A stretch of DNA of 64,000 nt. Origin: Longimicrobiales bacterium. GTDB lineage: Bacteria > Gemmatimonadota > Gemmatimonadetes > Longimicrobiales > Gaopeijiaceae. The notes under the pieces were generated by a model. It ran no database searches, was not told the origin of the DNA, and was given only the letters and a program-made list of their open reading frames with translations. Numbering within the stretch: position 1 is the first letter of the stretch; each line of letters opens with the position of its first letter. Of the stretch, positions 8,909-15,041 are shown piece after piece. A program made the position numbers and the translations under genes. The DNA is taken from the NCBI GenBank assembly GCA_965219445.1, contig CBDCNQ010000005.1:608001-672000 (forward strand), written 5' to 3'.

Positions 8909-11644
8909 TGGTTGGAGGAATAGGGTCACGGAGCGACCACCACGTCTGAATGACCAGCGGCGAGCGCGTTCATCCATGCGAGGGCCAGATCGCGGGACCG
9001 GTAGGTCCCATATGCGGCTGTCTCTTCGCGTTCGACGATGGGAAAGGTCGAGTAGATGTAGCGTATATCCTCCCGGTCCGTCACCCCGTACAGGTGGAAA
9101 TAGAGCGCATCCAGCTTGGCGCGGAGGTGGAGGCGCCTGCCGTCGTCCCAACGGAAGGGCGGCAGTACCTCACCCGCCTCGTCCACGTGGCCCAACTCGT
9201 GGGCAAACGGAGCCATGTCGTGTGCCGTATAGGAGAGTTCCAGCACGGCCTCGCGGACGATCTCCTGCGCCGTCTTGGGTCCGAAGCTCACGGCCCCGTA
9301 CCGCTCCGGTGGTACGACGGGAAGTTGCTCGACGATGAACCAGTTCAGATGCTGGCCCTGGATCTTCTGACGCGCCACGTAGTCGAATAGCACGGCGTTG
9401 AAGTTCGCCAAGAGGCACGTTACGTCGGCCCCGCCGTACCAGTCTGCCGAAACGATGGGGAGCGTGTTCCCTACTCCGGAGCCCGGTATCAGAGCGGCGA
9501 TCATCGAGCGAACGTTCGTTGGCGCGGTGACGTCCTTGAATCCCAGCAGGTATGAGGCTGTCGGGAACGACGTCTTGCCACGGAGCACCCAGTATTGCGG
9601 GTCGGGCAGCCAGTTCGGGTCCCGATGCTGCTCCGGGGTGGCCGGTTTCGGCTGGGCGGGGCGGTGAAGGTTCTTCGGGTTGATGACGATGCTGGCGGCC
9701 CGGTGGTCGAACGCCTGCACCATCTTGCCCTCGTAGAGCGGCACCCATTCGCCGGACCGGCTCTGGTATCGGTTGCCGCCGACCGGCCACGCGCCTTCCT
9801 TATCCTCCAGTTCCGACCGGGTGCGGAACTGGTCGGAGTCGTTGGTCATGTGGAACATCGTCGAGTACTTCACCGGCCACGCCTTCACGGCCTCGCCCGA
9901 CGAGCGGTCCACCAGCACCGGCAAGCGGTCGTAGATCGCCGTCGTGAGTTCCGCGTCGCGGCGCGAGCGGAAGATGGGAGCCGTGCCCGTGTTCGGATTG
10001 ACCCGGGCGAAGTCGGCGGCCGAGAGGGGGAAGCACCGCTCCGGGTCTCCGGTCTCCGAAACGTCTTGCAGAAAGAACGCACAGCGGGCCGGTTCATTCC
10101 CCGGTGCCGGGCTGGCGACGAAGGCGCAGAACTTGAACCGGCTGTCCACGTCTGGGAAGAAAGGCGGCACGTCGTAGCGCGTCCGCCGGTTCTCGAAATC
10201 GTAGAGGGCCTTGAGTCTGCCCTCGGTGGCCACGCTCTTGAAGAACGGGGCCGCCATCTTGTCCGACGCGATGCCGGACGGCACGAGCAGCCCGACCATG
10301 CCGTCGGGCTTGACGAGCGTCATGGCCCGTTCGACGAACAGCGAGTAAAGGTTCAGGTCGCCGCGTGCCAACAGCGGATAGCTGCCCGAGCCGCGGGCCA
10401 CCCGCGCGCCCGCGGCGGCTTGTTCGCTCGCAAGCTGGAAGTCCCCGGCCAACGGGTCTTTCGCCTTCTGGAGTTCGGCGATCATGCGTTTCCGGTCGGC
10501 AGCGCGGGGCGCCATGGCGATCTCGCGCCGGCGGGACGCGAACCATTCGACCTGCTGGAGCTTCATCCGGTCCCATGGCGGGTTGCCGATCACCGCGTCG
10601 AAGCCGCCGGTCAACTCCGCGGCTTCCCAGTCCGACCACACGCCGGGGAACGCCACCTGCCAGTTCAGGAAACGCTCACTGGCTACCAGTCCCAAGGCAT
10701 CCATCAGAAAGGGAAGGTCGGCATCCGACGAATCAGTTTGCTCCCCCTGGGCGACGCCCATCTGATCGCCGAACACACCATCCAACCATTTGAGAAACGC
10801 GGCCTTGACCTCACGCTTTCGGAGGCCCAGCCAGTCGAAGGCGTGAAGAAGCGACATGAAGGCGTGCAGGGGAGCGGTCATCTCCGAGACTTCGGCGAAG
10901 ATGTCGGCCGAACGGTGCGCCTCGGCGATCTCGGCGTCCGTCAACCCCTCTATGATCTGCATCGGCGCAGCCGCGCGCGTGGCCCGCACGAGCGTTCCCC
11001 TCAGGAACAGGCTGCTCTTCTCGTCCGTCCTGCGCACGGCGGGCTCCACCCACGCGCCGAACAGGCTGTCGCCGCAGCGGAGGTGATGATCCAGAAAGCT
11101 CAGCGGGGCGCCGACGGTGAACGTATGGAGCCACAGCGAGACCTTGGTCAGTTCCACCGCCATCGGATTCTTGTCCACTCCGTAGACGCAGCGCTTCAGC
11201 ACCATGCGGCGGACGATGTGCCGGTCGTCGAGTTGGGCCGGATCGAATGTCCAGCCCCTGTCCTCCGCGTTGTCCATGATCGTGTTGCGGATCCCGTCGA
11301 TCCGCTCCAGCAACGGCGAGAGGTATCCGTCCACGAGAGCTTCGGCCTCGGCCATCGCCTCGATAACGCGATCGGCAAGGTAGTCCACGAGGTTGACGAG
11401 GAAGTGTCCAGAGCCCATCGCCGGATCGCAGACCTTCAGCTCCAGCAGCTTCTCTGCCGGGTCTAGCCGCTTCAGGCGACCGATACGGTGGTCCTCCGGC
11501 ATCTTGTTTGACGCGATCTCCTCCACCTTGGCGGCGAAATGCTTCATGCGCGCGTCCGCCAGCGGCCCGACCGTCTCCCGCACGATCAGGTCAACCAGAT
11601 CGTCGGGCGTGTAGTAGCTGCCCGAGTCCTTGCGCGCGAACACG

Positions 11645-12616
11645 TTAGCAACTGTGTTGGAAACGGAGCTGATCGATGGGGATCGCTGGGTCCCACTTCC
11701 GACCGTCGCGGATCATGGCGTTGAGGATGATGAGCAGCTTCCTCATGCAGGCGACGTGGGCCACCTTGGGAGACTTCCCGCGGTCGCGTAGCCGGCGATA
11801 GAACACCCGGATGACAGGGTTCCATTTCGAAGCGCTCAAGCTGCTCATGAAGAGGGCAGATCGAACAGGAGCGCGTCCACCCCAGATCATGCGCTTCCCT
11901 CGGAAGAGGCCGCTGTCCCTAGCGAGTGGGGCGACTCCGACCAGAGCAGCGATCTGCTTGTTGGAGAGTCGACCGAGCTCGGGGAGTTCAGCGATGAGGG
12001 TACGAGCGAGGTTCGGGCCGACGCCGGGTACCTCGCGCAAGAGATCGCTCTTGGCTCGCCAGACGGGACTGTTTCGGATCAGATCGTCGAGGTCAGAGTC
12101 GATGTCGGAGAGCTGACGCTCGAGCCAGCGGATATGCTTCTTGATGCCCTTCTGGACCGCAGGTAGCGCGAAGCCCAGTCGATTGTTCTCGGCCGTGATC
12201 ATATCGATGATCTGGCGCCTACGGCCCACGATCGCGTCGAGGGCACGGGCAGCGTCATCGGGTAAGGGACGGACCTGGGGGCGGACTCGTTCGGCGAAGA
12301 GCGCGAGGATGTGGGCGTCGATCGCGTCGGTCTTGGCGAGTTGGCCCGTGGACTTCGCGAAATCACGCACCTGCCGGGGGTTCGCGATGACGACTGGGAT
12401 CTCAGCGGCTGCGAGAGCTGCAGCCGCGGCGACCTCGAAGCCACCGGTAGCCTCCAACACCACGAGCGTGGGCGGCCTCTCATCCAGACGCTGGACCAAC
12501 TGGGCGATCCCATCAGGAGCATTCGGGACGGTCCACGTCTCGTCTGACCCGGTCAGGGCGACATCGAGTTGGGCCTTCGAGACGTCGACTCCCGCGAAGA
12601 CAGGGGGCAACTCCAT
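11645..12616 (-). CDS. IS110-family DEDD recombinase/transposase
   Basis: GVDVSK, LEATGG, KTDAIDA, RDSG; GGAGGT RBS before ATG 12616. Confidence 0.95.
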
Positions 12617-12821: not shown

Positions 12822-15041
12822 GACGGACGACGATGTTCCCGCCGTCGCGGACGACCTCCCGTTCGAGCAGCCGCTCGTAGATCGAGCCGAGTTGCTGAAC
12901 CCCGAGATCCCGGTAGTTGATGTACCGGCGCGTCGGGCCATTGCGCTCGAAAGACAGCGCGTCGATCACATCGGCCATCACCGCGTCACCCAGCCGAACG
13001 CGCGAAAGCAGGGGCGTGCGCTCCCGGTCGAACAGTCCACCGTTGTAGGGCGGCAAGCCGATGGAGGCGTCACCCGCATCAATGGCGCGGCACAGGTCGT
13101 CGAACGCCGACCAGTAGCGGGCCGCCGTGACCGAGAACACGTCGCCCTGGTCCTTCCGGCGGCCAATGCTACCGCGTACCTGCTCGCGGAGCGCGTAGTC
13201 GTCGTAGCGGCTGTCGCGGACGGGCAGGAGATCCCGGTCTTCGGCGTAGAGGACGAAGAGGAGCCTGTAGAGCAGGACCAGCGCCGTGTCCCGCACCTCG
13301 GGCAACGGGACCTCGGTGTCCGCCTCGGCGAGTGCCCGGACGAGGTCCGGGAACACGTTCTCGAAGACCAGCGCCGACAGACTGCCGGCGACCCGTTCCT
13401 GATGGAAGCGGCCTTCCTCGATCGCCCGTTCGTGAAACGTTCGCTCGTCGGCCGCGCCGGGAAGAAAGGCATCCCGCCGGAACACCAGCCAGAACACCTT
13501 CAGCCAGTGCGCCCTTTCATCCGTCCCGAGCACCTCCTGCCCGTCGTCCGGATACCCGAGGACCGCCGCCAGATCAAGCTCGAAGAACTGTTCGGCGACC
13601 GAGCGCGCGCCGGCGTAGTAGAGACGCCAGCGAGCGCCGTTCGTCAGGATGCCCCAACGGATCTTCCCAATGGTCAGGTCGTCGATGCGGCGGAGGTAGC
13701 GCAGCATCTGCGTCGAGGGCGCGGACTCCTCACCCCGCCGCCCGGAGCGACGGTCCAGCGGTCGAAGCCACCGTTTCGACTCGACGACCGCCAAGCCGTA
13801 CTCGTAGCGCTTCCATTCCTCGGCGAAGCGGTTCGCCCGGTCCTTCGAGGAGCCGTCGGCGAACAACAAGCCATCCGGCACGTCTTGGCGTCCGTGCGCC
13901 GAGAGGTTCTGCTGCCTGAGGCTGGCAGTCCAGCCGAGCCGCGCCAGCACCGGCCAGATCAGGTCATCCTCGGTCTGGCTCTCGTTGGGCGACAGATCCG
14001 TCGGGAACCGATTGAAGAGGCCACGCAACGCGGCTTCAAGGTCTGCGAGCCCCGCGTCGGCTACGTCCCGCCAGTCCGGAAGCTCGGCGATCGCTTCTCG
14101 AAGGAAGTCCTCGGCGAACAGGCTCCCCTCGAAGGGCCGGACCATCGTCATCCGTAACCTCCCAAGCCCAATAGCCCCGAGTCAGCTTGGCCCAGCAGTG
14201 CAGTCCTTAGTATTGTCGAATCCTCGTCTGACAGTGATCCGGCCGTGCATTCAAACTAGCTCCCGCCGCGCTCAAGCGCGCCTCCTCGAAGGCCCACCCG
14301 AGTCCGCGAGCGAAGCTCTGGCCCTACGCTCGTCGGGAGGTGATGGAGGTGCCGCTGGCGGAGGCCGAGTCGGCACCGGGACGGCGCTGGAACGCTTGGG
14401 AAGTGGCCCCGATTCACGGTGTTGACACAGCCGGAATCGGGCTTCTCCGTGTAGGGTGTGGAGACTCTTGTCCGGCGACAAACGGGGCCGGAAGAGCGGT
14501 ACGTGAGACCGGCGGTGTTGGCAGGTTCGACGCGAGCCGGCGCCCGCGCTGACAGCGGCACCCTGGTGCTCACAGCGGCTCTTCAGCGGTTCCACCGGGA
14601 TCGTCCACTCCCCGCCGCGCAAGTCGATTTCCTCTCAACGCCGCGCCTCGGACTAAAGGGCACGGCCAGCCAGGATGAAACCAATTGCGGATGAAATCCG
14701 TAAAGTATTGCCCTTCGGATCACCGAAGCGTGAAGGGCAGCACGACCAAACGAGGCGAAACGGAGGAGACGCGTAGTCAGGTTGATCCACCCCGCGGCCG
14801 AACTGATGCCCGTGTCCATCGACGGGGGCGTCGGCGTGATCAGTCGCCGCTCCGGTTTCTGGGGTACATGGACGGCCCGGCATCGCTGGCCTCCCATCTC
14901 ACCGCCGACCGCGCTTCGCGAGGCTTGTTGAACAGGTTCCCCGGAGCGCTCGCGGGGGTGCTCCGCCGCCGCGTGGGCGGCGGCCAGCGACGACCTTGGG
15001 ACAGGTCACCGCAGGGCTTGTCGGACGCCGCTAATGCCGGG

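Follow-up and report, generated by a model that had tools for sequence, protein, structure and literature searches.

An IS110-group insertion sequence of Gemmatimonadota with a predicted bridge RNA likely aimed at integron attC sites

The insertion sequence and the gene that it divides

The window analysed here is a stretch of 64,000 nt from a Longimicrobiales bacterium (assembly GCA_965219445.1, contig CBDCNQ010000005.1, positions 608,001 to 672,000), and its subject is an insertion sequence (IS) of the IS110 group, 1,175 nt in length including both CT cores, which occupies 11647..12821 of the window. All features with coordinates below are on the minus strand, unless given as positions in another contig or as neighbouring genes. 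An earlier note, drawn from the bare sequence, had described an IS621-like bridge recombinase with readable donor and target guides inside a restriction enzyme gene. The boundaries of the element were set by an identical copy with other flanks in genome G153 and by an empty allele in genomes G161, G134 and G005. The CT cores lie at 12820..12821 (left junction) and 11647..11648 (right junction). The left end opens with the right donor arm TGTAT (12815..12819), found in 80 of the 89 leader-and-site rows that were compiled from homologues at protein identities of at least 53%, and the right end closes with the left donor arm ACAGTTG (11649..11655), which lies within the recombinase frame. Outside the junctions are the left target arm GTCCGTC (12822..12828) and the right target arm AACGT (11642..11646). 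Read from the minus strand, the rebuilt target is GTCCGTC-CT-AACGT and the donor ACAGTTG-CT-TGTAT, as the earlier note had written them. A 205-nt left-end leader is followed by a gene of 323 aa, and the right end has no non-coding part. As is usual for IS110 elements, the core is short and there is no target duplication past the CT; the empty alleles run on without a gap, their core being CG or TG.

The element splits a gene whose 5' part (about 443 codons) lies at 12822..14151 and whose 3' part (905 codons from the GTG at 11643, with methyltransferase motifs) lies at 8926..11646. When the element was removed in silico, 14151-12820 joined 11646-8926 in one open frame of 1,350 codons. The PADLOC models REase_MTase_IIG, for type IIG enzymes, and DrmMI matched both halves (E 2.7e-18 and 5.8e-27 for the 5' part; REase_MTase_IIG E 7.6e-47 for the 3' part), and PF07669 (Eco57I; E 2.2e-20) matched the 3' half; the host gene is predicted to be a type IIG restriction-modification gene. 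It is uninterrupted in G161, G134 and G005, at DNA identities of 83-91%, and contigs of three of four public runs read across the position of the element. The restored frame and the three relatives with an intact gene thus upheld the location inside a restriction enzyme gene.

To judge from the sequences, the element has moved recently, because two 100%-identical copies sit in G153, which belongs to another genus. The genome of the window itself (G000) holds one full copy and one frameshifted relative, 57-67% identical, whose leader is cut by another element, plus weaker matches. Named relatives from the same genus and family belong to Gemmatimonadota, order Longimicrobiales. Of 84 inverted pairs, the 25 longest included no repeat that joins one end of the element to the other. 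The top-ranked rows of a plasmid search were about 47-54% identical, the closest named one being ISMno7-like, and three records at 60-80% were counted.

Two further traces were seen in this genome. The broken relative (G000 C5:1032640-1033730) carries two frameshifts, and the other element cuts its leader inside the target loop; the leader that remains matches a 13-copy element of genome G014, which suggests another transfer between genera. At G000 C4:137685 a CT-AACGT site is followed about 80 nt on by an exact match to the right end of the element, which may be left over from a further insertion.

The recombinase

In the recombinase (323 aa; 11645..12616) the domains PF01548 and PF02371 were found with E values of 1e-24 and 9.8e-17, both above gathering scores, and the NCBIfam IS110 model NF033542 scored 216.5 bits against a cut-off of 140. 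Among solved structures it matched only ISCro4 (E 1.8e-40) and IS621 (E 2.7e-35), and the likeness to IS621 that had been proposed thus proved correct. Its residues D11, E55, D97, D100 and S235 align with the catalytic D-E-D-D and serine motifs of IS621; as far as such alignments tell, the recombinase is intact and of the DEDD/serine type.

The gene has no stop codon of its own. Its TAA is made up of the T of the core and two bases, AA, of the target site; on the predicted circle the frame would run 12 residues further, and all 36 distinct right ends from homologues of at least 69% identity keep the frame open as far as the core. At the present site the methyltransferase half of 905 codons starts with a GTG one base past this stop (window 11643-11647), and through translational coupling a methyltransferase without its nuclease half could persist.

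The leader as a predicted bridge RNA

Two segments of the leader carry the guides: 12721..12781 spans both target guides, as delimited by a consensus fold of 21 leaders and by pair counts, and 12639..12713 spans the donor guides, where the fold of the single leader was used as well. Folded alone, the leader puts both guide pairs in internal loops. The consensus fold, made from 21 leaders chosen out of the 89 rows (71-100% protein identity), gave two hairpins with internal loops, the two-loop form on which the earlier note had made its proposal depend. In its 28 consensus pairs 98.8% of cells were paired, and two-sided changes occurred in six pairs against 1.9 in shuffled alignments (0/500), a score that is favoured by the derivation of the tested structure from the same alignment; a sliding control gave at most two pairs with two-sided changes. 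Rfam returned no bridge-RNA family, its only match being sX15 on the opposite strand at 36.8 bits, below the gathering score of 55.

In distant relatives a sigma-70 type signal, TTGACA-17-TATNTT, spans the circle junction. The element studied here keeps the -10-like hexamer at the junction but not the -35 box. A weak promoter-like pattern just upstream of the target loop is conserved and fails a consensus scan. Relatives of the element are represented among the contigs of two metatranscriptome runs, which is not proof of transcription.

Guides, targets and donors among homologues

The motifs picked out in the earlier note, together with the CT at both junctions, all lie where it had placed them. 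These are the left target guide GTTCCATCT (12760..12768), of which apparently only the four core-proximal bases and the CT are in use, the right target guide ACGTTAG (12736..12742), complementary to CT-AACGT, and the left donor guide ACAGTTGC (12687..12694). Of 20,000 dinucleotide shuffles of the 205-nt leader, 379 contained the right-target 7-mer and 55 the left-donor 8-mer, with a single shuffle containing both.

All four guides were read, along with the flanking sequence, in the 89 rows, and co-variation was counted with one row per distinct guide pair against 5,000 shuffles of the guide-site pairing. The right guide predicted 230 of 240 right-arm bases (48 rows), compared with 97.7 +/- 7.7 in shuffled pairs (0/5000). 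The left-guide test was anchored on the CT, nine of the 89 rows being dropped for want of it. In the group with AAC guides (19 rows) it gave 68 matches against 54.9 shuffled (6/5000), and in rows with other guides (29 rows) 120 matches against 68.4 (0/5000). From distal to proximal, the left-arm matches of the AAC-guide group were 15, 14, 9, 29, 31, 30 and 35 of 43. Sites thus co-vary with the loops as the earlier note had expected, throughout the right guide and, for the left guide, chiefly near the core, where tracking was mostly at four or five bases. Because matches at the three core-distal positions were little above those of shuffled pairs, the effective address is some 4 nt, the CT and 5 nt; it would amount to about 11 bases and be right-weighted, unlike the 9 + 4 guides of IS621.

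On the donor side, the left guide corresponds to the donor arm in 71 of 78 rows and four rows with an altered donor have a matching guide; as 71 of 78 rows are identical, this co-variation rests on few variants. For the right donor guide, the contiguous GTGCAAG (12659-12665) proposed earlier is present at its place, but as a guide it is disfavoured, since its first two bases vary freely among homologues with one common donor. The donor-right guide of IS621 is split in the structure (PMC11208158), and by this analogy and the homologue alignment a guide split into AU (12668-12667), a bulge, G and CAAG (12659..12668) is probably the better reading. The handshake rule described for IS621 in the same source also holds. 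The predicted target-loop handshake base, C at 12735, would pair donor position 7 (G), with C opposite G in 78 of 78 rows, an invariant pair and hence not covariation; the predicted donor-loop base, G at 12658, would pair target position 7 (C here), with G:C in 70 rows and a pyrimidine at that position in 89 of 89.

In four leaders (L004, L005, L006 and L190) the core-pairing CT of the left target guide has been lost, CACA-TA or CATA-TA standing instead, and three of their four sites are still called attC-like, which is consistent with targeting driven by the right guide.

The right guide and the attC core site

An integron attC site comprises the boxes R'', L'', L' and R', with the crossover at G/TT, and the integrase needs the AAC/GTT triplet and the folded arms of attC. 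As read from the alignments, the right guide spells out the core site of attC in its bottom-strand form. The genome encodes an integron integrase above the curated cut-off, and attC-type repeats near it flank a cassette gene, which sets their orientation. On the bottom strand, the core sites of 18 such repeats read CT-AACGT (eight), CT-AACGG (nine) and CT-AACAT (one), and the guides of relatives cover both main attC types and the other attC end. The right flanks of many close homologues begin with AAC and go on as imperfect palindromes that end in GTTAG or GTTAT.

Sites were called attC-like by heuristics of our own, a profile built from 14 attC-like repeats of the genome (none adjoining a member of the clade) together with a geometry rule, and distinct sites were counted for flanks of at least 100 nt in homologues of at least 69% identity. 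By this count 16 of 30 distinct sites were attC-like. In the genome background the same calls were made at 56 of 1323 CTAAC, 36 of 484 CTAACG and 12 of 80 CTAACGT sites, so that the enrichment over the motif-matched control (16/30 vs 12/80) is about 3.5-fold. Six sites with flanks below 100 nt were counted apart, two of them called attC-like. All profile hits (13/13, in rows before de-duplication) abut the CT core at one register, 11 at the core-site end and two at the opposite end; insertion at a fixed attC nucleotide was thus found for homologues at profile-called sites and not for the copy at 11647-12821. Two early heuristics had been dropped, one that found a single site in a 45-kb stretch and another that gave no separation from background.

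Public runs gave further junctions. In a 1,554-nt contig of a metatranscriptome run, a relative with 65 differences is joined to the same attC end, and in run X2 a near-identical element continues into the sequence found next to an empty attC of this genome; a different loose end is listed at its other junction. In a quick tree of 104 proteins, which is to be read for clustering and not for rooting as its outgroup sits on a very long branch, the rows with AAC targets formed one branch of 35 rows (SH-aLRT 88; 99 for an inner 25 rows). Insertion changes the core site from GTTAGRY to GTTAGCA with the GTT triplet kept, and six of seven sites with a known left flank fit GTTRRRY. The attC would therefore stay usable after insertion, because the AAC/GTT and the folded arms that the integrase requires are both left intact. 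Taken together, these comparisons make the lineage likely attC-biased, with loose specificity.

Other elements were also seen at attC sites. A 96%-identical element (L002/L136) has an attC remnant that ends about 13 nt before its left junction and coding-looking sequence at its right junction, flanks that possibly reflect a rearrangement between two copies. A second IS110-family element of this genome, of 348 aa and with a long non-coding region downstream, shows about 26% identity to the present one along part of the protein and is present in seven copies (G000 C2:391547-392590, C2:393942, C2:384293, C2:287289, C2:275607, C4:301293 and C5:253739). Most of these occupy a single fixed position in attC sites of the same family, at their opposite end, so the attC sites of the genome would be open to two different RNA-guided elements, one per end. 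The integron array L178 (G000 C2:380000-399999) is heavily populated by rve-type transposase copies, which are nested with copies of the IS110 family; its attC sites share the strand of the integrase gene and lie downstream of it.

The copy in the restriction-modification gene

Three sites of the identical element are known: L180, which is an attC remnant, L199, which is not an attC, and the restriction gene. The right guide is fully matched at all three (5/5 in the restriction gene), and the left arms match at 4, 4 and 3 of 7 positions in register, the last in the restriction gene; over its full length the left target guide matches this site at 5/9, as the earlier note had counted. The fit of the restriction-gene site improves with a one-base bulge (whole-site edit distance to the guide of 3), and a tolerance of insertions has been noted for IS621 off-targets. 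Half-match insertion, in which the core and only one arm fit the guide, is described for IS621 by Xie et al. (bioRxiv 10.64898/2026.08.31.748434). On these matches the copy in the restriction gene is likely an off-target insertion through its right half, and the relaxed insertion that had been suggested agrees with this. The 14-mer GTTCCATCTAACGT, put forward as the preferred target, was rejected: no site in the genome has fewer than two mismatches to it and the three sites of the identical element differ from it at 3, 3 and 4 bases. The right guide instead spells the attC core, where about half of the close homologues are found.

Around the split gene lie a Upx-like anti-phage gene (window 4849-8568; E 3.9e-147, under the NCBIfam cut-off), a tyrosine integrase gene (16463-17626) and a Fic-domain gene (18169-19380), which suggests that the neighbourhood is an integrated defence island. 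A second copy of part of the 5' half of the restriction gene, 82% identical, lies at G000 C5:440538-440982.

Proposed mechanism and alternative explanations

The mechanism proposed here takes its premises (the boundaries, the catalytic residues, the complementarity of guides to target and donor, the co-variation among homologues and the attC enrichment) from sequence and its chemical steps from IS621. Circle formation would join ACAGTTG-CT-TGTAT, the donor loop would bind this circle junction, and the target loop would bind about 4 nt, the CT and AACGT; serine-linked strand exchange beside the CT would then insert the element with no duplication past the core. Entry into attC would take place in the bottom strand, in the orientation opposite to that of the cassette genes and two bases beyond the GTT triplet cut by the integrase, the right guide reading the conserved side of attC and the left arm falling in the variable start of the next cassette. 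The next cassette would thus carry the element at its head as cargo, the GTT and the rest of the attC being spared. Chance CT-AACGT sites, such as that in the restriction gene, would also be hit, because the address is short and right-weighted.

A number of observations weigh against this reading. The identical element has only one of its three sites in an attC, none of the 18 attC core sites of the genome is occupied (0/18), and three empty attC sites fit the guide at 11/14 positions against 10/14 at the occupied site; this last point also supports the off-target call, because empty attC sites fit the guide better than the site in use. The attC call at L136, apparently within coding sequence, is probably a false positive whose removal would lower the count to 15/30, and only 5 of 22 sites were attC-like in the group of 62-69% identity. 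A relative of 63% identity has 13 copies in G014, only two of them at attC; the G014 copies carry an AACAA guide and enter attC at the other end. Related elements supply the sites, so that Fisher p values for the enrichment overstate it. A third heuristic had proved too strict (0/1323 controls, three flanks called) and was relaxed and joined to the profile, the thresholds being chosen after the data had been seen. Weak matching of the left guide is not peculiar to the attC group (54% vs 60% of positions), non-attC relatives being likewise right-weighted. The lone leader was no more stable than its shuffles (z = -0.79), so the two-loop structure rests on the alignment. A TTGAC (-35) box at the right end occurs in 0 of 36 close relatives against 35 of 58 distant ones, and a promoter scan of the element in place found no sigma-70 promoter, a terminator scan being likewise empty. 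The end-to-end joint of a circle was not seen in contigs of six runs, contigs being prone to drop rare forms. Finally, no empty allele with a CT core was found, the genomes of relatives having CG or TG and the read joints of the runs CG, CC or CA. For this reason we infer that the recipient allele had a synonymous CCT codon; alternatively, the CT may have arisen by conversion of a non-CT core.

Much of this would also suit an ordinary bridge element whose short, right-weighted address (about CCRY-CT-AACGT) has no evolved link to integrons, attC being a repeated non-coding match where insertions survive. Among the CTAACGT sites of the genome 12 of 80 are attC-like anyway, 11 of the 13 G014 copies and two of the three copies of the identical element lie outside attC, and the better-matching attC sites of the genome are empty; moreover, the stop supplied by the target might alone account for a fixed AA, and the argument from AAC conservation is the weaker for it. 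However, the AAC of the right guide is fixed over a clade of 62-100% protein identity, distant relatives using many guides, the guide variants mirror the attC subtypes (AACGT and AACGG, with AACAA at the other end), and the enrichment of about 3.5-fold remains over the motif-matched control. We thus consider an element indifferent to integrons unlikely.

Recognition of attC as a folded single strand (a hairpin or cruciform), with the guides reading two arms of the fold, would draw on the established folding of attC single strands and on the poor match between the left guide and the linear left arm. About half of the sites, including that in the restriction gene, nevertheless have no attC fold and do have a linear right-arm match, and the left guide tracks the linear left arm at core-proximal positions, which renders such recognition very improbable. 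Lower still do we place the possibility of a second, intended target in the restriction-modification gene, with the element as a reversible switch of a defence gene. Precise removal does restore the frame, the site lies in a defence cluster with the Upx gene, and the right arm is conserved among the alleles of relatives. Against these stand the 58 distinct right flanks, among which this gene does not occur a second time, a left arm that is the worst match among the three known sites of the identical element, the lack of a CT core in the alleles of relatives, and the inefficient excision reported for IS621 (PMC13626964).

On balance we hold it probable that this is an intact and recently mobile IS110-group element whose predicted IS621-type bridge RNA likely aims at the attC core, and that the copy described here is likely an off-target insertion, driven mainly by the right guide, which splits a type IIG gene. 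More tentatively, and with rather less than even confidence, we suggest that an IS621-type lineage of Gemmatimonadota converged on attC independently of the IS1111-attC group, with a long right guide, insertion two bases past the cut, a life as cassette cargo, a borrowed stop and stray copies matched by the right arm only; the proposal that the stop borrowed from the target ties the gene to CT-AA sites belongs to this suggestion and shares its tentative standing.

Relation to known systems and significance

The domains and catalytic residues are the same as in IS621 and ISCro4 (IS622; PMC11208160, PMC11208158 and bioRxiv 10.1101/2025.05.14.653916; structures PDB 8wt6 and 9t56), and the 323-aa recombinase falls within the 315-330 aa that is given for the IS621 branch. 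The left-end bridge RNA with a target loop followed by a donor loop, the CT core and the handshake geometry are likewise like those of IS621 and ISCro4. The donor is identical at 12 of 14 positions to the IS621-type donor ACAGTATCTTGTAT, which the earlier note had given correctly and which is present in a supplementary alignment of Durrant et al. IS621, in these sources, targets REP repeats with a 9-nt left and a 4-nt right guide; here the right guide matches nearly perfectly over 7 nt, the left one over about 4 + 2 nt, and attC is the likely target. Also unlike IS621, the gene runs through the right end, its stop comes from the target, and the -35 box of the right end is missing. In the work of Xie et al., events matched by the right target only could not be scored for IS621, since its native right guide is 4 bp; in the lineage described here, by contrast, the right guide is 7 nt long and there are natural sites that seem to depend on the right arm.

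With the IS1111-attC group, as published descriptions present it, the lineage shares the habit of RNA-guided IS110-family elements that insert at one fixed attC position. That group differs, in those descriptions, in having its guide RNA downstream of the gene, where here it lies upstream and the gene reaches the right junction, and in having sub-terminal inverted repeats of 7-17 bp, where here the 25 longest of the inverted pairs held none between the ends. In the literature searched, attC targeting was found in print only for the IS1111 group, and no attC-targeting bridge element of the IS110 group was found. The exact donor 14-mer of the element occurs 424 times in the orthologue-site file among the supplementary material of PMC11208160, and the orthologue lists of that supplement also include a few unlabelled targets of this type; that data set is thus likely to contain members of the wider group, on which it does not comment. 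The mechanism and the chemistry are known from IS621, and the new part is likely an attC-biased lineage of the IS110 group with loose specificity.

For genome engineering, the lineage offers a small natural orthologue whose right guide is 7 nt long, and its numerous natural pairs of guide and site expose the positions which matter for specificity. For its host, the copy at 11647-12821 is a mobile element that disrupts a predicted anti-phage gene within a defence cluster. If the attC reading is true, the effects of insertion sequences on cassette shuffling, which have been little tested according to PMC11616780, would become testable with a reprogrammable 14-bp system, and a second RNA-guided lineage would be seen to parasitise integron cassette arrays, entering attC at its crossover end and apparently sparing it.

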